From contig SCQP01000016.1 in the NCBI GenBank assembly GCA_004299485.1, positions 213,842 to 277,841 on the forward strand: a stretch of DNA of 64,000 nt, read 5' to 3'. The position numbers and the translations under genes are program-made. The stretch is from Acidobacteriota bacterium (lineage in GTDB: Bacteria; Acidobacteriota; Terriglobia; Terriglobales; SCQP01). Below the pieces are notes generated by a model. It ran no database searches and was not told the origin of the DNA. It was given only the letters and a program-made list of their open reading frames with translations. Below, in pieces: positions 7,854-59,289 of this stretch (positions are counted from its first letter, which is position 1; each line of letters begins with the position of its first letter).

Positions 7854-8201
7854 ATGCGGGCTGCCGACGGACAAGTCTTCGCGATCACCGGCCTCTGCCG
7901 GCAATCCGATTTTCGCGTGCCGCTTGGGGACTGGAGTTTGGTCCACCTGGGAACCGCCGAGATCGGAGGCGGCGAGGAACCGTACCTGCTGGTGCGCCGA
8001 AGGATGGATAACGGAACCAGTACGGTGGTTTGCCGCATCGATTGGGAGGGCGTGTTTACGGTGCTGGCCGACGACGATACCGCTGCGGAGGCGCTGTTTC
8101 ACGATCTGGTCGATCCGGCGGCGCCGGAAGAAGTCCAGCGCCAGTGGACGGCTGAGGCGGACACGCTCGAGCAATATCGCGGCTGGCGGCAACAAGCATG
8201 A
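7854..8201 (+). CDS. Hypothetical protein
   Basis: 115-aa ORF. Its stop overlaps the start of the next gene (ATGA). Confidence 0.45.
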   Translation: MRAADGQVFAITGLCRQSDFRVPLGDWSLVHLGTAEIGGGEEPYLLVRRRMDNGTSTVVCRIDWEGVFTVLADDDTAAEALFHDLVDPAAPEEVQRQWTAEADTLEQYRGWRQQA

Positions 8202-8953
8202 GCGACTGCTACTTCGAGTTCTGCAACGTCTACAAAAGCTTTGGCTCGAATACGGTCTTGCGGGACGTGAGCTTCGAGGTGTGCCGCGGCGAAACCGTCT
8301 GCATTCTCGGGCGTAGTGGCGTCGGCAAGTCGGTCATGCTGAAGCTGATCATGGGCTTTCTCACGCCCGATAGCGGCCGGATACTGGTGGACGGGCAGTC
8401 GGTTCCGGATATGACCGAGGCCGAACGGAATGCCATGCACAAGAAGGTAACGCTGGTGTTCCAGTCCGGCGCTTTGTTCGATTCGCTCACGGTGGCCGAA
8501 AACGTCGCCTTTCCACTGCGCGAGCGGGGCATGCACGACGAAGAAGAGATCGCGCAGGTGGTGGACGGCCTGCTGGACATGGTCGAGCTGCGCGCCGAGC
8601 GGGAAGACTACCCGGCGAGCCTGTCGACCGGGATGAAGCGCGCCGTGGCCATCGCGCGGGCGCTGGCCGCCAAACCCCAGGCCATCCTCTACGATGAGCC
8701 CACGACCATGGTGGACCCGATCATGGTGCAGAAGATCGCCGCCCTGATCGTGCGCGTGAAACAACAGGTCAAGTTGACGAGCATAGTTGTTACGCACGAC
8801 ACCCGCCTGGCCCGGCGCCTGGCCGATCGCCTGGTGCTGTTGCACGAGGGCGAAGTCCGCTTTTTCGGCACCGTGGCGGAGATGGATGCCACCGCCGATC
8901 CGGTCGTCCGCGAATTCCTGCGGCAGGACGAGTGGGCGCTCAAGGCGGGCTGA
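8198..8953 (+). CDS. ABC transporter ATP-binding protein (MlaF/Ttg2A-like)
   Basis: Walker A 'GRSGVGKS', signature variant 'LSTGMKRAVAIARAL', Walker B 'ILYDEPT', and the Mla-type 'MVDPIM' region. Confidence 0.8.
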   Translation: MSDCYFEFCNVYKSFGSNTVLRDVSFEVCRGETVCILGRSGVGKSVMLKLIMGFLTPDSGRILVDGQSVPDMTEAERNAMHKKVTLVFQSGALFDSLTVAENVAFPLRERGMHDEEEIAQVVDGLLDMVELRAEREDYPASLSTGMKRAVAIARALAAKPQAILYDEPTTMVDPIMVQKIAALIVRVKQQVKLTSIVVTHDTRLARRLADRLVLLHEGEVRFFGTVAEMDATADPVVREFLRQDEWALKAG

Positions 8954-8954
8954 G

Positions 8955-9065
8955 GTGGCTCGCCACTTTTTGCCCCGGTCGCTCCCGTTGGTCGCTCGGA
9001 GTGCGGGCTTCGATTCCCGGCAGAGTCCGCCCGCTGGCGCTCGGGGCTCCTCCAAGCTGCCGCCA
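8955..9065 (+). repeat. 111-bp interspersed repeat, copy 1
   Basis: Begins gtggctcgccactttttg and ends ctccaagctgccgcca. It starts 1 nt after the stop of the ABC ATPase gene. Near-identical copies lie at 29961-30071 and 34374-34484. Confidence 0.95.
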
Positions 9066-9521
9066 CATGTGCGCTTTTGGTCTCGTCCGCTGTTCCCTTT
9101 TTTTACGCTAACTGTACCACTTTGCAACGCAAAGCAGCGTATTTGCTGGGGATCTTGAATGTCTGGAGTGGCACACGCGGAACAGGAAATGGAACAGGCG
9201 CGTACGGGGCGCCGTGGCGGGTGGCGAGTCGCGAGTGGTGAGACAAGGCTGACGGACATGGTTCGAGTGTTGGATCGGCGGTGCGCACCCACGGTATCCC
9301 TGCTTCGCGCTCGCGCTACGCAGGGCAGGGCCGGCGGAGCTGCCCGGTCAAGCTAAGGACGGTTATGAGTAATTAGATGGGCAAAGGGATCATTTGGTTG
9401 GCCGGAAGGGAGAATGCGTGAGCCCTGAAATGGGACGGCGTGACCCCACATGAACGGGGATTGACTGCATCACGGCGTGAGTTGAGGCTGGTAGCTATTC
9501 GGCTCATTTCCGGACGCTGCC

Positions 9522-10847: not shown

Positions 10848-13800
10848 AGTGCGGGGCGCAAGCGTCGCCACCGTTTACGCCTACTCCGGCTACACGGTGC
10901 CCTTGCAGCCAAACGACGCGACCGTTTCGACGCTGCAAATGCCGGTGGAGGCAACGATTACGGCCAAAGACTGGAACGGGGCGACGCTGCGGACAACGGC
11001 GGAAACGTGGAACAACCCGCGCGAGATGGCGTCGAAGGAAATTACCGAAGATGATGGCAAGGTGAGCGAGCAGACCTACTTTTACGATGCGAACGAACAG
11101 CAAACGGAAAGGGACGAGTACGACTACGGCTCGGGCGCGCCGGGCGCGCTCACCCGGGTGACGCTGCATACCTACGGTTGCGCGCCCGGCGTGCACATCG
11201 TGGACCGGCCGACGGTGGTTGAGATCGAGGGCAGCTCGCGGACGGTGACGGCGGAGACCGAGTACGCCTACGACCAGTCGCCGCTGGTGGCGAGCGGCGC
11301 CACCGATGGGCGCGATCCGGCCTACGGGGCCGGCCGGGGCATCACCGCGCGCTGCAACCTGACCACGTTGACCAAGGTTAACTACACCGGCAACATCAGC
11401 GAATCGTTTACGTATGACGATGCCGGAAATCGGCTCACCCACGCCGACGGCAACGGCAATACCACGAGCTTTGCCTATAGTTCGAGCGATCAGGCAGCCT
11501 ACCTTACCCAGATCACGCTGCCGAACACCACGACCGCGGGCAAGACCGTCCAGCACTCGTTCACCATGGCCTACGACAACACGACGGGTCTTGAGACCTC
11601 GCGCACGGACGTGCAGAACGCGACCACGACCAGCTTCACCTACAGCGATCCGCTCGACCGGCTCACCGGGCAGAACAATCCGGATGGCGGCAAGATCACC
11701 TACGCCTATACGGCCAACTCGGTCGAGACCAAAAAGCTGGCGATAAACTCCGCCTGGACCGACGCATTTGCGCACTGGGGTGGCCTGGGCAGTGCCGACC
11801 GCAAGCTGACGTACAACGGGACCAATTGGGACACGACCGACACGGCGTTCGACGGCGAGCAGATGCCACTGTATGTTTCCTATCCCTATTTTTCGAGCGG
11901 CATCGGCTCGACCAAGGCCACCAGCAACTCCACCGAGCCAGGCGACACGACCGCGTTTGATGGCCTGGGGCGCCCGACGCAGATCCTACACTCCGATGGA
12001 GGTACGATGACCATAGCTTACTCCGGTCCCAACCGGACGGTCACCGACGCCGCCGGACGGGCGCGCGAGGAGTTCTATGATGCACTCGGGCGTCTGGCCG
12101 AAGTGAAGGAGTTCACTGACGCCAGCGGCGACGGCTACGCCACCTACTATGGCTACGGTTCGCTCGATGACTTGAAGGCTGTGACCCAGGGCAGCGAGAC
12201 GCGCACGTTCGATTATGACAATCTCAACCGGCTGGTGGACGCGATCAACCCGGAAGGTGGAACAGTGGACTATACCTACGACAACGACGGCAACTTAATC
12301 AAGCAGCAGGACGCCAACGGCACCATCGAGAACTACACGTATGACGCGCTCAATCGTTTGCGCGCGCGCAGCTACACGGTGAGCGGCAAGACCGCGGCAA
12401 CGCCAGCGGTCGAGATCGACTACGACATCGACTCCACCGGTGCTGCGACCGATTACGCCACTGGCCGCATGACGCGGGTCATCAGCGGTTCAACTTCAAT
12501 TGGCATGGACCAGTACGATGCCATGGGCCGATTGCAGACCTATGACACCGTCGTGAGCAGCCAAACGTATCACACCAGCCTGCGTTACGACTATCTGGGC
12601 GACGCCGAGTGGGAGGAGCTGCCCGATGGGCGCGAGATTGACGCCACCACGGATTACGAAGGGCGGGCGAAGTTTTTGTCGGACCAGACGGCGAAGTACG
12701 ATTTCCTGCACTATCGGACCTACTCGCCGGCGGGCGGGCTGAGCGAAGAGGAGTTTGGCAACGGGCTGGTAGGGTACGTGGACTACAACAGCCGCCTGCA
12801 ACCGGTTCAGATCTCGGTCAAAAACCCCAGCGATCCGAGCGATAATACCTGGAGAATGAACCTCTCGATTGGATATACGGAGGCGGGGGTGCAGACGGCC
12901 GATAACGGCAACGTGGTTTCCCTGACGGATGCGCTCGGCAACGCGAGCCAGAACTACACCATGAATTACGACCATCTCAACCGATTGCTGAGCTGGTCGA
13001 TGGGAGGAGGTACGAGCTGTCAATTTGCGATTGATCAGTACGGCAACCTGGGTTTGTCGAGCGGCAGCGGCTGCGCGATGCTGAGCGGGCTGAGCTTCAA
13101 CGGCAACAATCAGATCGTGGGCTACACGTACGACGCGAGCGGGGATTTGTTGACGGATAACGCCGGGTCGAACTACGCCTGGGACGGCAACAGCCAGTTG
13201 GTGAACTTCTACACCGGGGGCGCAAGCGGCAGCTACGTGTACGACGGCCTGCTGCGGCGGGTGGAAAAGGCGGCGGACTCGGTCACGACCGTCTACGCGC
13301 GGGACGCGCTGGGCAACGTGGTGGCGAGCCTGACGAACGGCGTCTGGACGGACTACGTCTGGGCGAACCCGCCCGGGGCGGGCAACCGGATGGCCGCGGC
13401 GCCGGCGTCGCCGGATGCGGAGCGGATAGCGGCGGTGGTCGGCTCGGGGGTGGGCACGGTGTACTATTTCCACACCGACCAGGTCGGGACCACGCGCGCC
13501 GTAACCGACGAGAACGGCAACAACGTAGCCACGTGCGGGCAGAACGCGACGTACCCGAACGGGAGCTTTCTGACCTATGGCCCGTTCGGCATGCCGACGG
13601 GCTGCACGCAGACGGCGACGCCGATTCTGTTCACCGGGCACGAGCTGGACAGCGAATCGAACCTGAGCCAGTTCCAGTACCGCAAGTACGCGGCGCTGGA
13701 AGCCCGCTGGGCCACGCCCGACCCGGCCGGGGTGAACGGCCCGCCTGCGCCCTCGCCCAACGGCTTTGACCTCGGCCCGGCTGCCGCGGGCGCACCCGGC

Positions 13801-14951: not shown

Positions 14952-16018
14952 ACCTGGAGGATGGACCTGTCGATTGGGTATACGAAGGCGGGGGTGCAGA
15001 CGGCCGATAACGGCAACGTGGTTTCCCTGACGGATGCACTCGGCAACGCGAGCCAGGATTACACCATGAACTACGATCAGCTCAACCGTTTGCTGAGCTG
15101 GTCGACGGGAGGAGGCACGAGCTGTCAATTTGCAATCGATCAGTACGGCAACCTGGGTTTGTCGAGCGGCACGGGCTGCGCGATGCTGAGCGGGCTGAGC
15201 TTCAACAGCAACAATCAGATCGTCGGCTACAGCTACGACCCAAGCGGCAATTTGCTGACCGACAGCGCCGGGTCGAACTACACCTGGGACGGCAACAGCC
15301 AGTTGGTGAACTTCTACACCGAAGGCGCCAGCGGCAGCTACGTCTACGACGGTCTACTGCGGCGGGTGGAAAAGACGGCGGACTCGGTGACAACCGTCTA
15401 CGCGCGCGATGCGCTGGGCAACATGGTTGCGAGCCTGACGAACGGCGTCTGGACAGACTACATCTGGTCGAACCCGCCGAAAGCGGGCAACCGCGTGGCC
15501 GCAGCGCCGGCATCGCCTGAGGCCGAGCGGATCGCCGCGGTGGTTGGATCCGGGGTGGGCACGGTGTACTACTTCCATACCGACCAGGTCGGGACGACGC
15601 GCGCCGTGACCGACGAAAACGGCAATAACGTGGCCACGTGTGGGCAGAACGCGACGTACCCGAATGGGAGCTTTCTGACGTATGGTCCGTTCGGCATGCC
15701 GACGGGCTGCACGCAGACGGCGACGCCGATTCTGTTTACCGGCCACGAGCTGGACAGCGAATCGAACCTGAGCCAGTTCCAGTACCGCAAGTACGCCGCG
15801 CTGGAAGCCCGCTGGGCCACGCCCGACCCGGCAGGCGTGAACGGCCCGCCGGCGCCATCGCCCAACGGCTTTGATCTGGGCATAACCGCCGCGGGCGCGC
15901 CCGGCGACCTCGAACCCGAATCGCCCGTCGCCAGCCTGGCGACCCTGCCCGGCTTTGGCTTGCCGCTCGGTGGCGTCGACCCGCTCGAGCCGCAGACCTG
16001 GAACCCCTATGCATACGT
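14952..16018 (+). repeat. 1,067-bp direct repeat, copy B (orphan RHS cassette)
   Basis: Homologous to 12847-13913. Homology starts at acctggag and decays after tatgc(a/g)ta(c/t)gt. Confidence 0.9.
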
Positions 16019-29952: not shown

Positions 29953-30885
29953 TTAGCTATGTGGCTCGCCACTTTTTGCTTTGGTCGCTCCCGTTGGTCG
30001 CTTGGAGTGCGGGCTTCGATTCCCGGCAGGATCCGCCCGCTGGCGCTCGGGGCTCCTCCAAGCTGCCGCCAAGGGCGGCGCGCCCGCCTTACCTCGCGCC
30101 CTTGGTTGGCGTGGGGTTGCTTTTTGCAGGCCGAACATTTCGGCTTCGGTCAGGGGACGCATCTTTCCTGATTGTAGCTGGCCAATGGTCAATTTGCCGA
30201 TGGCCACGCGTTTCAGCTTTTCCACCGGGTGACCGACGAGCTGGAACATTTTGCGGATTTGATGATAGCGGCCTTCGACCAGCACCACCTCGAGCCAGGG
30301 ATTTTCGCGCGAGGTGCGGTAAACGCCTGCCTGCTGGCGGGCGCGGCCGCTGGCGCCGGCGTCGCGCAGCCAGCGGATTTGCGCCGGCGCGGTGCGCCGG
30401 CCATCGATCGTGACGCCGCGCCGGAGCCGTTCGAGATGTTCTTCGCTGGGCCGGCCGCTGACTTTCACCCAGTAGGTCTTGGGCAGCGCCGTGCTGGCTT
30501 TCAGTACATGGTTGGCGAGCTCGCCGTCGTTGGTAAGCAGGATCAGGCCCTCGGAGTGAAAATCCAGCCGCCCGACGGGATAGAGACGCTCCTTGATGCC
30601 CCGCAGCAGGCGAGTGTAATCGCTGATGCTGGGGCGGCCCTCTGGATCCCTGAGGGTGCTGACCACACCTTTGGGCTTGTAAAACAGCAGGTAGCGCAGG
30701 TTCCGTTCGCGCTGGAGCGGCTTGCCGGCTACGGCAATCCGGTCCGTGTCCCAGTCGGCTTTGCTGCCCAGCTCGGTCACAATGCGGCCGTTGACGCTCA
30801 CCTGGCCGGTGGTGATCAGTGTTTCCGCTTGCCGGCGGGAGGCATACCCCGCCTGGGCGATGAGCTTTTGCAGCCGGCTTTTCAT
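29953..30885 (-). CDS. rluB: 23S rRNA pseudouridine synthase (RluB/RsuA family) with repeat-derived C-terminal tail
   Basis: S4 domain 'MKSRLQKLIAQAGYASRRQAETLI' and catalytic 'GRLDFHSEGLILLTNDG'. ATG at 30885 chosen; the track ORF begins at 31155. The last ~39 aa are 'LAAAWRSPERQRADPAGNRSPHSKRPTGATKAKSGEPHS'. Confidence 0.85.
   Translation of the reverse strand: MKSRLQKLIAQAGYASRRQAETLITTGQVSVNGRIVTELGSKADWDTDRIAVAGKPLQRERNLRYLLFYKPKGVVSTLRDPEGRPSISDYTRLLRGIKERLYPVGRLDFHSEGLILLTNDGELANHVLKASTALPKTYWVKVSGRPSEEHLERLRRGVTIDGRRTAPAQIRWLRDAGASGRARQQAGVYRTSRENPWLEVVLVEGRYHQIRKMFQLVGHPVEKLKRVAIGKLTIGQLQSGKMRPLTEAEMFGLQKATPRQPRARGKAGAPPLAAAWRSPERQRADPAGNRSPHSKRPTGATKAKSGEPHS
29961..30071 (+). repeat. 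111-bp interspersed repeat, copy 2
   Basis: Same element as 8955-9065. Read on the minus strand, it supplies the last ~37 codons of the rluB ORF. Confidence 0.95.
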
Positions 30886-31024
30886 TGATCGCGGGCACCC
30901 AGCCGTGCTTCGCCCGGCGGCCCGTTCTCCGCGTCTGCGGGGGAGCGGCGGCGGGGGCCCCCGTGCCCCACCGCCGCCCGCATAACTGTCAGGAGCTTTG
31001 CCAGTGCCATGCCCATCTAGGGTA

Positions 31025-31513
31025 TCAGGGCAGCGAGGCGAGTTGGGTGGCGTTGGGCGACGCGGTGACGCCGAGGGGGCCTTTGCGGGCAAGAATGTCG
31101 ATACGAACCGGCGCCAGGCCCTGACCGCTGAAATGCAGCGCCCGGGCGGCGCCATAGCTCAGGTCAATAATGCGGGAGTCAGGCACCGGACCGCGGTCGT
31201 TGATCCGCAAAATGACGGCCAGATTGTTTGCGAGGTTGGTGACGCGGACGCGCGTGCCCAACGGCAGGGTGCGGTGGGCGGCGGTCATGGCCCACATATT
31301 GAACGGATGGCCGCTGGTGGTCTCTTTTCCCTGGAAAAATGAGCCATACCAGCTCGCGATACCCACCTGGTAGGGGAGCTTGACCGGAGGAATGGGGGCG
31401 GCAGGACTAAAGTCCTCAGGCTGGCCTGCCGATGATGCGTTAGGAACCCGCACGGCCAAAGGCGCGCTGAGGAGCGACATGGTCAAAAGGAGGAAGGCAA
31501 AGATTCGTCTCAT
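31025..31513 (-). CDS. rlpA: Septal ring lytic transglycosylase RlpA family protein (DPBB domain)
   Basis: Signal peptide, then 'GIASWYGSFFQGKETTSGHPFN...TAAHRTLPLGTRVRVTNLANN...VILRINDRGP'. Confidence 0.85.
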   Translation of the reverse strand: MRRIFAFLLLTMSLLSAPLAVRVPNASSAGQPEDFSPAAPIPPVKLPYQVGIASWYGSFFQGKETTSGHPFNMWAMTAAHRTLPLGTRVRVTNLANNLAVILRINDRGPVPDSRIIDLSYGAARALHFSGQGLAPVRIDILARKGPLGVTASPNATQLASLP

Positions 31514-33243: not shown

Positions 33244-34674
33244 TCAATTGCCGAAGACCGCGCCATGCGGGATGGCGCTGCCGGTCCAGCCGTTCGGCCA
33301 GCGGCGGGTGAGGTTGAGCTTGTAAGGCAGCAGACGGAGTTGGCCGGTGCTGCGGTTGATGGCGGCAAACAAAACTTCGGTTTCCATGGCGCCATACCCC
33401 GTAATCACCAGGCGATCGCCTCCAGGTTCGGCGGCAATCCAGTGCGGGTCATTGCTTGGCGGCAGCAGGATGCGGCTGACCTCATGCGGGTGTTCGGGGT
33501 CGTGCATATCGATGCTGAGGATGGCGTGGCCGCTTTGGGTATTCCAGATGAGGTATTGTCCCTCAACGACGGGAACTTCGCAAAAGCGGTAGCCGGGGTC
33601 GTAGATAGCGCGCAGCGTGGGATTATTGCCGGCGAGGCCGTCGACCCGGTACAGGCCGCAGTAGAAGTCGGGTACGACGACGGTGCGGCCATCGGCAAGC
33701 ACGCGCGGCTCGGAAGAATCGGCAACGTCGGGGAGCGTGCGCGGATCCGAGCCGGGCAGAACCATGGTCTTGAGCAGTGTGAGATCGGAGAGACGCCAGA
33801 CCTGCGCAACGCGGCTGGGCTGCGCGCCCATCATGTCGGCGCTGCTGGAGACGACGCGGTCGAGCGCGGGCACGACGGCCAGGCTATAGGGGCGAATATT
33901 CGGGTAGCCGGCGACCGCAGCGGAGACGGAGCGGACGACATGCCCGTCGGGCGCGAACTCGACCAGCCCGCCGGTGGCGTGATTGAAGCCGCCGGAGTAT
34001 TGAAACGTCGCCAGGGTGTTGCCGTTCGGCAAATAGATGAACGAGTGCGGGTAGCTGAAGTTGCCCACACTGCCAAACTGCCGCAGCAGGCGCGGGTGCA
34101 GGGGGTTGTGAAGATTGAAAACGTAGGTCTGGTTGCCGAGCCAGTCGTTGGCGTACAAATGACCATCCGGCGGCAGAGCGTAGCTGGTGTGGTGGGCCAT
34201 GCTCGCCTGGCCCACGGGCAGCATGGCGACGAGCTTGCCGAAGGGCTTGGCGCCGGGCGCGACGTTGAACACGGCCAGAAAATCGCGGCCCAGGCCTTGC
34301 GGCGAGCGGACGCCGGGTTTCATCTCCATAGCGGCATGCGGATGCCGTGACTCCATGGCCCAAACAAAAAGATGTGGCTCGCCACTTTTTGCTTTGGTCG
34401 CTCCCGATGGTCGCTTGGGGTGCGGACTTCGATTCCCGGCAGGGTCCGCCCGCTGGCGCTCGGGGCTCCTCCAAGCTGCCGCCAAATGACTTTGACTGGC
34501 ACGGGGCCTGGCGTGGCTGCGCCACGCCACCCGCTTGACGCTCGGCCGGGCCGAGGGCCCCGGGAGCCCCGGCCCGGCCTTCGCGTTAGGCTGCGGCGGG
34601 CGGGTTGCGGCCAGCAGCAGCGGCAGCGCGGCGGCGAGCGCGGCCAACAGGCAAGCGAGGGGGAGGCGCTTCAT
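33244..34674 (-). CDS. Selenium-binding-protein-like beta-propeller protein (SBP56/methanethiol-oxidase-like); N-terminal region contains repeat copy 3
   Basis: 'LFVWA...DFLAVFNVAPGAKPFGKLVAMLPVGQASMAHHTSY' resembles the SBP56-family N-terminus. 'MKRLPLACLLAALAAALPLLLAA' looks like a signal peptide. The true start is uncertain; internal Mets lie at about 34356 and 34329. Confidence 0.6.
   Translation of the reverse strand: MKRLPLACLLAALAAALPLLLAATRPPQPNAKAGPGLPGPSARPSVKRVAWRSHARPRASQSHLAAAWRSPERQRADPAGNRSPHPKRPSGATKAKSGEPHLFVWAMESRHPHAAMEMKPGVRSPQGLGRDFLAVFNVAPGAKPFGKLVAMLPVGQASMAHHTSYALPPDGHLYANDWLGNQTYVFNLHNPLHPRLLRQFGSVGNFSYPHSFIYLPNGNTLATFQYSGGFNHATGGLVEFAPDGHVVRSVSAAVAGYPNIRPYSLAVVPALDRVVSSSADMMGAQPSRVAQVWRLSDLTLLKTMVLPGSDPRTLPDVADSSEPRVLADGRTVVVPDFYCGLYRVDGLAGNNPTLRAIYDPGYRFCEVPVVEGQYLIWNTQSGHAILSIDMHDPEHPHEVSRILLPPSNDPHWIAAEPGGDRLVITGYGAMETEVLFAAINRSTGQLRLLPYKLNLTRRWPNGWTGSAIPHGAVFGN
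34374..34484 (+). repeat. 111-bp interspersed repeat, copy 3
   Basis: Same element. It lies in frame inside ORF 33244-34674, between the signal-like N-terminus and the conserved 'LFVWA' block. Confidence 0.95.
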
Positions 34675-34869: not shown

Positions 34870-35073
34870 GTGAAAGAGCAGGGAACTGTCAAGTGGTTCA
34901 ACAATGCCAAGGGCTATGGCTTCATCACCCGCATGAGCGGTGAGGATGTCTTTGTGCATTACACAGCGATTCAGGGCGAAGGGTATCGTTCCCTGGCCGA
35001 GGGCCAGGCGGTGGAGTTCGAGGTCAAGCAGGGCCCCAAGGGTCTGCTGGCCGAAGATGTGACGGTACTGTAG
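34870..35073 (+). CDS. cspA: Cold-shock protein (CspA family)
   Basis: '[15 protein letters not shown]' and 'VFVHYTAI' RNP motifs. 67 aa, GTG start, with a ~190-nt upstream non-coding leader. Confidence 0.9.
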
Positions 35074-35113: not shown

Positions 35114-37756
35114 ATGCGCGCGGGGTATAATCGCCACTACCAGTCTATGCAGGCGGGAGTCACTCTCGGACCGTATGAGATCGTGGCGCCGCTGGGCGCG
35201 GGCGGAATGGGCGAAGTCTATCGTGCCCGCGACCGGCGCCTGAACCGCGACGTGGCGATCAAGGTGCTGCCGGCGGCGGTGACAAGCGATCCCACGCGGC
35301 TGCGGCGCTTTGAGACCGAAGCGCGCTCGGCGGGTCAGCTCAGTCATCCCAATATTCTTGCCGTGTTCGACTTCGGCGTGGCCGAGGGCGCGCCTTATCT
35401 GGTGACGGAGCTGCTGGAGGGCGAGACGCTGCGCGCGCGGCTCACGCCGGCGATCGCGTTGCCGCCGCGGAAAGCGATTGAGATAGCGCAGCAGGTGGCG
35501 CGCGGGCTGGCGGCGGCGCACGCCAAGGGCATCATTCACCGCGACCTCAAGCCGGAAAATATCTTTCTCACGCGCGACGGCCAAGCCAAGATTCTGGATT
35601 TCGGCCTGGCCAAAGTGGCTGAGACGGTCAGTGACGACGCCGAGACCGTAGCCGCCGGTCAGGTGACCAGTGCCGGGCAGGTGCTGGGCACGGCGGGCTA
35701 CATGTCGCCGGAGCAGGTGCGCGGCCAGGCGGCGGACGCACGCTCGGATCTGTTTGCCCTGGGCGCGATTCTGTACGAAATGCTGACCGGCCGGCGCGCC
35801 TTCCAGCGTGACACTGCCGCGGAAACTATGACCGCGGTGCTCAAAGAGGAACCGGCGGAGATCACGGCGGCACCGGATACGCTGGCACCGGCGCTGCAGC
35901 GGGTGGTCGATCATTGCCTGGAAAAAGATCCGGCCGCGCGCTTTCAATCGGCGCGCGACCTCGAGTTTGCGCTGGCGGCGCTCACCGGCAGTTCCTCGAC
36001 CCGCACCGCGGCGCTCGCCGCGCTGCCTGCCCCGCGCCGTCAGGTTCCGATGCTCGCCGCGGTGGCCCTCACCGCGGTGGTTGTGGGCCTGGCTGTGTTT
36101 TTCGCGATGCGCCCGGCGCCGTCGGCGCACTGGCATTTTACGGCGGTGACCAACTTTCCGGGCGTGCAGGCGCAGCCGGTGTTTTCGCCCGACGGCCGCT
36201 CGGTCGCCTTTACCTCGAACGAAGACGGCCATTACAACATCTACGTGGCGCTGCTGAGTGGTGGCACACCGGCGGAGGTCACGCACGGGCCGAACGCGAA
36301 GCAACATCCCGCCTGGTCGCCGGATGGCGCAACGCTCGCCTACGCGCGGCTGAACCACAGCGGCCTCTCGGATATCTGGGAAGTTCCGGCGCTGGGCGGC
36401 ACGCCGCGCCGCGTGGTGCCCGATGCTGCCGAGCCCAGCTTCACGCGCGACGGCGACCTGGTGTACGAGCACGACGGCGCGGTGTGGGAGGCGAGCAGCG
36501 GCGGAGAAAATCCACACCAGATCGTGGGCATTCCTCCGGGCGATACCGAGGTGGTATACCCGCGCCTTTCCCCCGATGGCCGCTATGTCGCGTTTTCCAC
36601 GGCCAACTATACCAGCGGACCCTACCGCGATCTTGCGGTGGCCAATCTGGCGAGCGGCAAAATCCGCGTGCTGACGACTACGGGGTTGGCCACCTCGCCC
36701 GTCTGGACACCCGACAGCCACACCATTTACTTCGCGTACAACGGCTCCGGGGCGATGAACCTTTGGAAGATCCACGTCGACGGCTCGGGCTTGCAGCAGA
36801 TTACTTCCGGCGAAGGCGACGACGCCGACCTCGATATCTCCGCTGACGGAAAGCGGATCATCTTCGACACGATGCACGTCGGCATCGGGCTGGCCGAGGT
36901 CAATCTGCAAACGCCGGTCAATCAGCAAACGCCACAGATGCTGCACGTGGATCCCGCGCGCTGGCTGTGGGGCCCGCAGTATTCGCCCGACGGCAAGCGT
37001 TTGGCCTATTTCGCCGCACTTAAAGGAGTGGTCAGCGAGAGCATCGGCGTCGCCAATGCGGACGGATCGGGCGCAGTGCCGTTGGTCGAGGATCAGCGGG
37101 AAGATATCTTTCCGGTATGGAGCCAGGACGGCCAGAGCTTGTACTTTGTCTCCATGTACCCCCACGCCATTCGCACAGTCCCCGTTGCGGGCGGATCGCC
37201 GCGCACGTTGTATCGCTTACCGACGACAGCATCGTATTACCTGTCGGTTGGGCGTGATGGCAGGATTCTCTTCCAGAATGGCAACACCCTGGATGTACTG
37301 AACCCAGATGGCAAGGTTCAGGCGATCGGTGCTCTTCCCGCGGGTGCGGACCTGTTGGCCTGGTCGCCGGATCAGCGGCAGGTGGCCTATCGCCTTACGG
37401 CCCGCAGGGCGAATGATCCCGCTGCCGGCCTCTGGGTGACGGACTTGCATGCGCCGCCGCGGCAGATATTCCAGGGCTCAGTCAACCGTGCCGTGTCCGC
37501 CGCAGGCAGCCTGTACGTGCTGCAGGCGCAAGCTGACCTGGGCACCGTCCTGTGGAAGCTCTCCTGGGATGGCCGGGGCCGGACGCAGGTCTCAACCCGC
37601 ATTGTGCCGCTCTGGGACGCGAATTACAATGACGTGGGCGTCGTGAATTACGTCGCAGTATCGCCGGATGGCAACCAGGCCGTCTTTCAGGACGAGCCCG
37701 GGCTGTCGGAAAACATTGGCCTGCTTACGCTAGCGTCTCCAAAGAGTCGGCAATAA
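35114..37756 (+). CDS. Serine/threonine protein kinase with TM segment and C-terminal TolB-like beta-propeller repeats
   Basis: 'LGAGGMGEVYRARD', 'AIKVL', 'HRDLKPENI', 'DFGLAK', 'GTAGYMSPEQ'. The C-terminal half has repeated 'SPDG...AF/Y' WD40-like TolB motifs. The start may be the ATG at 35147. Confidence 0.9.
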   Translation: MRAGYNRHYQSMQAGVTLGPYEIVAPLGAGGMGEVYRARDRRLNRDVAIKVLPAAVTSDPTRLRRFETEARSAGQLSHPNILAVFDFGVAEGAPYLVTELLEGETLRARLTPAIALPPRKAIEIAQQVARGLAAAHAKGIIHRDLKPENIFLTRDGQAKILDFGLAKVAETVSDDAETVAAGQVTSAGQVLGTAGYMSPEQVRGQAADARSDLFALGAILYEMLTGRRAFQRDTAAETMTAVLKEEPAEITAAPDTLAPALQRVVDHCLEKDPAARFQSARDLEFALAALTGSSSTRTAALAALPAPRRQVPMLAAVALTAVVVGLAVFFAMRPAPSAHWHFTAVTNFPGVQAQPVFSPDGRSVAFTSNEDGHYNIYVALLSGGTPAEVTHGPNAKQHPAWSPDGATLAYARLNHSGLSDIWEVPALGGTPRRVVPDAAEPSFTRDGDLVYEHDGAVWEASSGGENPHQIVGIPPGDTEVVYPRLSPDGRYVAFSTANYTSGPYRDLAVANLASGKIRVLTTTGLATSPVWTPDSHTIYFAYNGSGAMNLWKIHVDGSGLQQITSGEGDDADLDISADGKRIIFDTMHVGIGLAEVNLQTPVNQQTPQMLHVDPARWLWGPQYSPDGKRLAYFAALKGVVSESIGVANADGSGAVPLVEDQREDIFPVWSQDGQSLYFVSMYPHAIRTVPVAGGSPRTLYRLPTTASYYLSVGRDGRILFQNGNTLDVLNPDGKVQAIGALPAGADLLAWSPDQRQVAYRLTARRANDPAAGLWVTDLHAPPRQIFQGSVNRAVSAAGSLYVLQAQADLGTVLWKLSWDGRGRTQVSTRIVPLWDANYNDVGVVNYVAVSPDGNQAVFQDEPGLSENIGLLTLASPKSRQ

Positions 37757-58639: not shown

Positions 58640-59289
58640 ATCACCCTTGGCTATACTGCATCAGCAATGGCTCCGGCTGGGAGGGATTCGAGCGGCTGGT
58701 GGAGGTGGCGCGGGCGGGTGTAGATTTTATCCAAGTTCGCGAAAAGCAGCTTAGTGGGAGAGAATTACTGGCCTTTTGCCGCAAGCTGCGTGCGGCCATT
58801 CCGCCGGGCCGCCCCAAACTGCTGGTAAACAGCCGTTTGGATGTAGCACTGGCGGCCGGCTTTGATGGCGTCCACTGCCCGGCGGACGGCCTGCCGCCGT
58901 CCCGGCTGCGGCCGCTCGTACCGCCCGAGTTTCTTATTGTGCAGAGCTGCCATAGCGCCGTCGAGGTGGTGACTGCTGAAGGTGCCGACTTTTGCGTCTT
59001 CGGGCCGGTTTTCACCACTCCGTCCAAGCTGGCCTTTGGGCCGCCGCTGGGTCTGGAGGCGTTGGGTGCAGCAACCCAGTGCGGTAGACCGGTGCTGGCA
59101 CTGGGTGGCGTAAACCCCGGCAACGCCGCGCAGTGCCTTGCCCAGGGCGCGGCGGGGATCGCCGGCATCCGGCTGTTCGCCACCGGGAACATGGCGGCCG
59201 ATTTGCGCGTAGTATTGACAGGCGCGGGGCCCGGCCCGGTTGTGCCGATCGACCCGCTTGCGCCGCAGCGAGGTCCCCAACCATCATGA
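58600..59289 (+). CDS. thiE: Thiamine-phosphate synthase family protein
   Basis: 'VDFIQVREKQLSGRELL', 'LLVNSRLDVALAAGFDGVH', 'DFCVFGPVFTTPSK', 'LALGGV'. The start is uncertain; the ATG at 58600 was chosen. Confidence 0.65.
   Translation: MGSGKRNHALRSLDHPWLYCISNGSGWEGFERLVEVARAGVDFIQVREKQLSGRELLAFCRKLRAAIPPGRPKLLVNSRLDVALAAGFDGVHCPADGLPPSRLRPLVPPEFLIVQSCHSAVEVVTAEGADFCVFGPVFTTPSKLAFGPPLGLEALGAATQCGRPVLALGGVNPGNAAQCLAQGAAGIAGIRLFATGNMAADLRVVLTGAGPGPVVPIDPLAPQRGPQPS

Follow-up and report, generated by a model that had tools for sequence, protein, structure and literature searches.

Palindromic repeats colonising genes in frame are usually seen as a peculiarity of Rickettsia. The Rickettsia palindromic elements (RPEs; Ogata et al. 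2000, 2002) are summarised in PMC10969869 as small (~100–150 bp) hairpin-forming repeats of several families; in three of their ten families, almost half the copies are located in frame within unrelated genes. The genes concerned are housekeeping genes, and the added peptide is accommodated by the protein fold. Intragenic copies are also on record for repetitive extragenic palindromic (REP) and enterobacterial repetitive intergenic consensus (ERIC) sequences (PMC3733652, PMC10969869). MITEs (inverted-repeat transposable elements of miniature size), such as ERIC, Correia/NEMIS, Nezha and RUP, are non-autonomous, ~100–150 nt long and sometimes form in-frame fusions with host open reading frames (ORFs) (PMC10969869). 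Acidobacteria were reported to encode TIRYT, their own group of transposases resembling the REP-associated tyrosine transposases (RAYTs) (Di Nocera et al. 2013, PMC3733652). Here, we analysed a 64,000-nt stretch of the genome of an Acidobacteriota bacterium of the order Terriglobales (contig SCQP01000016.1 of assembly GCA_004299485.1, positions 213,842 to 277,841 of the forward strand; hereafter the window). A gene in this window encoding a secreted beta-propeller protein, designated as the host gene, contains two different palindromic repeats, family 1 and family 2. With a probability of about three in four, the two are tandem non-autonomous elements that lie in frame at the junction of the signal peptide and the first strand and are read through, adding a basic disordered tail to an exported propeller.

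The two families resemble RPEs in being hairpin repeats of about the same size with many copies (111 nt with ~99 unique copies for family 1, ~96 nt with 94 matches for family 2) and in having in-frame copies in unrelated genes where the added peptide is tolerated by the fold. Unlike the RPEs, they reside in a free-living member of Terriglobales and not in an obligate intracellular alpha-proteobacterium, most of their copies are intergenic, and one element is read in several frames; the tandem arrangement of two different families in the host gene is a further difference. RPEs are the closest precedent; given their residence in Terriglobales, the present families are an analogue at most, likened to RPEs by behaviour. 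Full-text literature searches returned no description of these acidobacterial families. The coordinates of the features are shown in Table 1.

Table 1 Features of the host gene and repeat copies in the window (positions are those of the window).
Feature	Position	Strand	Basis
Host gene, 476-aa secreted beta-propeller protein including the 69-codon insert	33244..34674	-	ORF list, homologues, AlphaFold model
Signal-peptide codons, aa 1-23, MKRLPLACLLAALAAALPLLLAA	34606..34674	-	K2/R3, then a 20-residue hydrophobic stretch
207-nt (69-codon) insertion as placed by alignment	34378..34584	-	MAFFT, window vs L001; protein alignment
Family-2 repeat, ~93-96 nt, other half of the insert	34489..34584 (start 34485/9)	+	blastn, nhmmer
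Family-2 hairpin 1, GGCGTGGC-TGC-GCCACGCC	34510-34528		Read from sequence
Family-2 hairpin 2, near-palindrome, arms GGCCGGGC/GCCCGGCC at 34544-34551 and 34572-34579	34544-34579		Read from sequence
Family-1 copy 3, in host gene; core GTGGCTCGCCAC...GCTGCCGCC at 34374-34483, then A, three variable bases and conserved G at 34488	34374..34488	+	
LFVWAME codons, aa 102-108, first conserved beta-strand of the mature protein, directly after the insert	34351..34371	-	Alignment and model
Family-1 copy 2, in rluB ORF (29953..31155, -)	29961..30075 (core 29961-30070)	+	
Family-1 copy 1, intergenic	8955..9069 (core 8955-9064)	+	
Partial diverged family-2 copy, 5' half only	59210..59263	+	nhmmer E = 1.8e-6; blastn 76% over 46 nt

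A homologue search with the host ORF gave 3092 matches, typically of 409 aa, which cover only 79–82% of the query. In the 16 homologues that were aligned, (Y/F)LFVWAME occurs within ~10 residues of the signal peptide, and LFVWAME is unchanged in all 16. The nearest homologue, P0001 (407 aa, 94% protein identity; Logan run SRR16630539), has the N-terminal part MKRLPLACLLAALAVALPLLLAATRPPQPSHFLFVWAMES, in which the signal peptide is directly followed by PQPSHF-LFVWAME. An alignment of its contig (L001) with the window by MAFFT showed that the upstream/promoter region, signal peptide and body are collinear to the base with ~95% DNA identity, and that L001 is without exactly 207 nt, which correspond to 69 codons devoid of a stop. 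The position of the junction is uncertain by ~4 nt because the empty site has AGCCAC, the reverse complement of the element end GTGGCT, at the place of that end. The empty-site orthologue shows that the 207-nt segment is a true composite insertion, and the segment consists of two different, unrelated repeat elements placed end to end. It can be partitioned as 111 + 96 or 114 + 93, and each of these terms is divisible by three. An earlier note on this DNA, made from its letters alone, had proposed a composite in-frame insertion of ~230 bp; the composite nature, the multiple of three and the insertion itself were all borne out, while the size is 207 bp. The check it proposed, alignment with insert-free homologues, revealed no equivalent linker in ~3000 proteins of ~409 aa, and a natural linker in homologues was what the note had named as counterevidence.

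The host ORF starts with MKRLPLACLLAALAAALPLLLAA, consisting of MKR and LPLACLLAALAAALPLLLAA. This segment has the features of a Sec signal peptide (basic n-region, hydrophobic h-region, small residues ahead of the cleavage site) and does not contain a twin arginine. The signal peptide of the insert-free orthologue P0001 is nearly identical, and equivalents are present in other homologues in the protein alignment. In the AlphaFold model of the host protein, which is of moderate quality (mean predicted local distance difference test score, pLDDT, of 64), residues 5–22 form a helix that corresponds to the signal peptide, residues 101–107 (LFVWAME) form a strand, and an all-beta propeller body follows. 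These observations agree with the signal peptide that the earlier note had placed at the ORF start. Residues 24–97 have pLDDT values below 50 and no secondary structure, and the insert segment is accordingly predicted to be disordered. The 69 residues encoded by the insert are AKAGPGLPGPSARPSVKRVAWRSHARPRASQSHLAAAWRSPERQRADPAGNRSPHPKRPSGATKAKSGE (15 K+R, 3 D+E, and 10 P). The low-complexity stretch, previously estimated at ~40 residues, measures 31–32 codons.

A Foldseek search of the PDB with the host model gave 2ECE, a selenium-binding protein from Sulfolobus, as the top match (E = 5.5e-12, template modelling score 0.56–0.59). At the sequence level, the Pfam scan of the host protein gave no family at E ≤ 0.01, the NCBIfam model MtoX scored only 33–38 bits against a cut-off of 650, and the PDB sequence search gave no match. 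The designation "SBP56-like" in the earlier note is consequently tenable at the fold level of the predicted structure (2ECE) and not at the sequence level, where Pfam is silent and MtoX reaches 33 bits vs 650; by sequence the host protein appears to be a distant MtoX relative. The label "YncE family" is used in some source annotations. Exact-protein look-up of the 476-aa ORF and of P0126 and P0129 returned no record.

In the mechanism that we favour, families 1 and 2 would sit head to tail in the coding sequence between a Sec-type signal peptide and the first mature beta-strand. The ribosome would read straight through the insert because the unit lengths are divisible by three and the frame in use is stop-free. 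Cleavage of the signal peptide would then leave an exported propeller with a Pro/Ala/Arg/Ser-rich, strongly basic and disordered N-terminal extension of 69 residues. Comparison of the host gene between the window and L001 gave a ratio of nonsynonymous to synonymous substitution rates (dN/dS) of 0.10 with dS of 0.29, indicating purifying selection on the host gene. Outside the junction, 10 derived amino-acid changes were assigned to the window lineage and 8 to L001; this balance gives no sign of relaxed constraint on the window gene. No terminator-like site is present in the insert on the sense strand. The only internal methionine, M107, is located after the invariant LFVWA and is not preceded by a Shine-Dalgarno-like sequence. 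Taken as a whole, the sequence data make read-through translation the most likely outcome, and the fused product would be exported and still functional. Of the two outcomes considered in the earlier note, tolerance in frame is favoured over disruption by the 207 nt without a stop, the low dN/dS, the balanced changes and the frame-keeping of all intragenic copies described below.

Family 1 is present in the window as three same-strand copies of a ~114-nt repeat (8953–9066, 29959–30072, and 34372–34485), which are 93–96% identical. Copy 2, which encodes 37 residues of the RluB ORF with only two more residues after them, also looks like an in-frame insertion, judging from the sequence. Copy 3 in the host gene uses the reading frame that copy 2 uses, giving LAAAWRSPERQRADPAGNRSPH..., and is directly followed by the LFVWA block; both features had been recognised in the earlier note. 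Copy 1 begins one base past the TGA that ends a gene for an ABC ATPase (8198..8953, +). All three copies are stop-free in all six frames (~2% expected by chance, as computed for copy 3). As for the surroundings of copy 2, it is located two codons ahead of the rluB stop codon and 19 nt upstream of the following gene, which encodes a CoA-binding protein; subtraction of 111 nt from the rluB ORF leaves ...GAPPYS-stop, still in frame.

A census of family 1 was made with a degenerate pattern of its 5' half, which retrieved 82 metagenome loci, followed by nhmmer. The latter gave 141 matches, which reduce to ~99 unique copies across the 0.89 Mb of related contigs. In the metagenome scan, a 24-mer of the subfamily present in the window had no match, and a 28-mer scan of genome contigs matched one other contig. 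Seven copies from four sources share a core of exactly 110 nt. When the A that follows is included, the length is 111 nt in 63 of 77 copies, 144 nt in 5, and 132 nt in 1. The right end reads GCCGCC, then A in 87% of cases, then three variable bases and a G that is kept in 99% of 69 copies (34484–34488, 30071–30075, and 9065–9069 in the window). Since this G is conserved beyond the right end, the unit may be 114 nt, and the G may mark the cleavage or recognition point of a mobilising enzyme. In the same number of copies, matches between left and right flanks were at chance level for k = 2–6, giving no indication of a target-site duplication. The left flank has no conserved target, with an information content of ≤0.34 bit at each position. 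The ends, GTGGCTCGCC... and ...GCTGCCGCCA, are complementary only over TGGC/GCCA, and terminal inverted repeats of ~15–30 bp are absent. RNAalifold predicted a 5' mini-hairpin and a long 3' hairpin with 27 pairs, 2 of which have compensatory changes between subfamilies. At least five frames are open in 45 of 63 copies.

The other half of the insert had been described in the earlier note as GC-rich palindromes. The palindromes are present, with both hairpins at the coordinates it gave, yet they are not anonymous sequence and belong to a second, distinct repeat element, family 2. Besides the partial copy listed in Table 1, the host gene carries the single full copy in the window. Matches were found in L002 (1110–1194, 85% over 85 nt), L028, L071, L042, L043, L012 and other loci, and nhmmer gave 94 matches in 44 of the sequences searched (the window and the loci). 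At 11036–11330 of L012, three units form a perfect tandem array with a 96-nt period and no spacers. Covariation indicated two hairpins with 28 pairs, of which 6 are compensatory. Single-sequence folding of the 141-nt repeat regions was no better than that of shuffles (z of −0.8 to +0.8), and the structure of the elements is seen only via covariation within the families. Families 1 and 2 adjoin or nest at further loci too. In addition, copies of both families can harbour, always at fixed points, a nested mini-palindrome of 33 nt with the sequence agcccgccccgctgtggcggcgcgaggcgggca or a variant of it (L062 1380–1526, L059 7317–7468, L070 5602, L012 6334, L008 2029, L024 2919, and others). It accounts for the 144-nt variants of family 1 and for longer copies of family 2, and its intragenic carriers are still in frame.

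A six-frame peptide query from family 1 was run against the protein database and detected 15 proteins from metagenome-assembled genomes (MAGs) of Acidobacteria/Terriglobales that contain the element-encoded 37–38 residues, read in three different frames. The peptide is internal in ThiE, RibA, YjbQ, HycI and ArsR, directly follows the signal peptide in one further protein, and is at the N- or C-terminus in others. At the DNA level, copies were found inside an M24 Xaa-Pro peptidase gene and a gene for a likely VapC-type PIN toxin, the latter named from its sequence and an adjacent AbrB-like ORF and having no Pfam match. In ThiE, RibA, YjbQ and the M24 peptidase, the insert divides or extends the Pfam domain; that of ThiE is cut in two, and that of the M24 peptidase is lengthened by ~36 residues. 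Family 2 has a copy in frame within a 1115-aa secreted protein in L002.

For an unbiased sample, a codon log-odds classifier was trained on 275 long ORFs from the loci and applied to the flanks of unique copies. It finds the right frame in 95% of 50-codon windows and superseded an earlier in-gene test that proved too strict (70 open codons on each side, with thresholds on G+C content at third codon positions). Among 74 family-1 copies, 33 had no coding flank, 28 had coding sequence on one side, 11 were in frame and stop-free in a gene, and the remaining 2 had coding flanks on opposite strands. The corresponding numbers for 39 family-2 copies were 18, 13, 8 and 0, and random control positions gave 7%, 31%, 54% and 8%, respectively. 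All 19 intragenic copies are in frame and stop-free, with no out-of-frame copy in either family. This frame-keeping is the pattern that purifying selection would be expected to leave from elements with a length divisible by three. In MAGs and metagenomes of Terriglobales, both families are abundant and mainly intergenic (~80–85%), with ~15–20% of the copies in genes. The intergenic copies have no orientation or position bias relative to genes. A terminator role was considered and rejected, given these unbiased intergenic copies and the lack of a terminator on the sense strand of the insert.

Three alternatives concern the origin or role of the insert. It is extremely improbable that the insert was already present in the ancestor and was lost from the L001 lineage by a precise deletion: palindromic repeats can be excised, but all other homologues (~409 aa; 16 aligned) are without the insert and join the signal peptide to (Y/F)LFVWAME as L001 does. 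Hardly less improbable is a repeat-induced misassembly that put repeat sequence into the gene. Multi-copy repeats, to which both halves of the insert belong, can be misplaced by assemblers; against this, both flanks match the orthologue to the base, the insert is open over exactly 69 codons, and in-frame insertions of a like kind occur in independent NCBI, ENA and JGI assemblies. We also regard it as improbable, though less so, that the repeats are functional modules (a conserved peptide, or a structured RNA or DNA signal) recruited by the host, here as a linker or translational pause. The maintenance of hairpins by compensatory changes and the openness of the family-1 copies, in six frames for those in the window and in five or more for most others, would fit such a role. 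Nevertheless, no single peptide is conserved because the element is translated in at least three frames across proteins, the host proteins are functionally unrelated, most copies are intergenic without bias, and no Rfam family was matched. The Rfam searches, of the whole window at the gathering threshold and of the locus and the L012 array at E ≤ 10, gave chance matches only (DnaX frameshift element and miRNA models). The former, a dnaX ribosomal frameshift element at 34354–34409 (-) in gene-sense family 1 (GGGAGCGACCAAAGCAAAAAGUGGCGAGCC), scored 15.3 bits against a gathering threshold of 35 (E = 0.6) and was judged as a chance match because its A-run is no proper slippery heptamer in the frame used. 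A tRNA or tmRNA origin, prompted by TTCGATTCC and a 3' CCA, was discarded as well; ARAGORN found none, and the arms do not pair as a T-arm.

The alternative that bears most directly on the fate of the gene is that the insertion inactivated it by blocking export or folding; the ORF would then be a pseudogene of recent date or would yield no more than a cytoplasmic fragment through a restart at Met107. We consider this unlikely, although several observations point in its direction and weigh against read-through. The insert adds 15 K/R and only 3 D/E right after the signal peptide, and these 15 basic residues together with two GC hairpins of high stability could hamper translation or translocation by Sec. 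The 93–96% identity among repeat copies suggests a recent event on which selection has had no time to act, and this single allele among ~3000 homologues carries the insert. As the repeat copies differ by 4–7% while dS between the orthologues is 0.29, the sequences suggest that the insertion took place long after the lineages of the window and L001 had separated; the dN/dS value is an average over both lineages since that split, in which a recent loss of function would stay hidden. The signal peptide was assessed by inspection and homologue comparison. Moreover, since no transposase was found, mobility of the elements is deduced only from copy number, presence/absence and nesting. On the other side, the frame is open across all 69 added codons, the signal-peptide codons are conserved with 3 synonymous differences and 1 non-synonymous difference, and derived substitutions are balanced between both lineages. 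Met107 lies downstream of the invariant LFVWA strand without a Shine-Dalgarno-like sequence, and family-wide, intragenic copies persist only in frame. For these reasons, read-through with a tolerated N-terminal extension is preferred over inactivation.

Signs of mobility are an orthologous site that is filled in one lineage and empty in the other, the high copy number, the division into subfamilies, and the nested and tandem arrangements. The elements would spread by a hairpin-recognising mechanism of the single-stranded DNA type without target duplication. By definition, MITEs have terminal inverted repeats of 15–30 bp and target-site duplications. The present families are also non-autonomous, about 100–150 nt long and at times fused in frame with host ORFs, but family 1 shares only TGGC/GCCA at its ends and has no duplication; with neither terminal inverted repeats nor target duplication, a classical MITE is disfavoured. 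As in REPs and bacterial interspersed mosaic elements, the units are GC-rich palindromes that are clustered or nested, occur mostly between genes and occasionally within them, and leave no target duplication. They differ from REPs (20–40 nt, a single palindrome) in having 93–114 nt with two or three hairpins, and they have no conserved GTAG/CGTC tag: family 1 starts with GTGG, and the CGTC tag is not conserved in family 2 (CGCCAC in the window, GCGAC in L002). With elements derived from the insertion sequence (IS) family IS200/IS605 they share hairpins near the ends, the lack of terminal inverted repeats and of target duplication, and insertion into other hairpin DNA. The IS200/IS605 family inserts 3' of a fixed 4–5-nt target next to the left end, whereas here the left flank is not conserved and a conserved G is found beyond the right end instead. 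By analogy, the end-near hairpins and the insertion into hairpin DNA resemble single-strand transposition of the REP/RAYT or IS200/IS605 type. A crude motif scan (HUH plus Y..NP) of all ORFs in the 0.89 Mb revealed no RAYT-like ORF. A composite transposon was rejected as an explanation, as an inverted family-1 pair 2.6 kb apart in L016 encloses ordinary genes. An IS110-family (DEDD) transposase gene is located in L004 (11856–13133; also in L005 and L006), 1.2 kb away from the YjbQ gene with the family-1 copy inside; IS110 elements likewise have neither terminal inverted repeats nor duplications, and palindromic repeats are often their targets.

Upstream of the host gene, a divergent 67-aa ORF (34870–35073, +) looks like a cold-shock protein from its translation, and the 200-bp stretch between the two genes is ~97% identical to L001. 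The next ORF (880 aa, 35114–37756, +) looks, on reading its translation, like a Ser/Thr kinase fused to TolB-like beta-propeller repeats. Elsewhere in the window, a 300-nt direct repeat (12847–13146 and 14952–15251; 91% identical, 2.1 kb apart) is unrelated to families 1 and 2.

The repeats described here add new families, and a new phylum, to an already known kind of selfish DNA. Tentatively, and with more doubt than confidence, one may picture in Terriglobales an ecosystem of at least three nested palindromic elements of 33, 93–96 and 111–114 nt (variants of 132 and 144 nt), all multiples of three and largely stop-free: selfish DNA that would be shaped to survive in coding sequence, spread by a duplication-free, hairpin-targeting enzyme and remodel proteins at loops, termini and signal-peptide junctions. 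The end structure, with no terminal inverted repeats, no duplication and a conserved G past the right end, provides a handle for finding the mobilising enzyme. For annotators, such segments are neither sequencing errors nor marks of pseudogenes. They are natural experiments on the tolerance of proteins to insertions of 32–69 residues, including a tandem pair exactly at a signal-peptide junction. Behaviour like that of the rickettsial repeats is seen here in free-living Acidobacteria that are abundant in soil; at least two families are involved and core enzymes are affected (ThiE, RibA, M24 peptidase, and RluB), and the phenomenon may be more general than has been thought.

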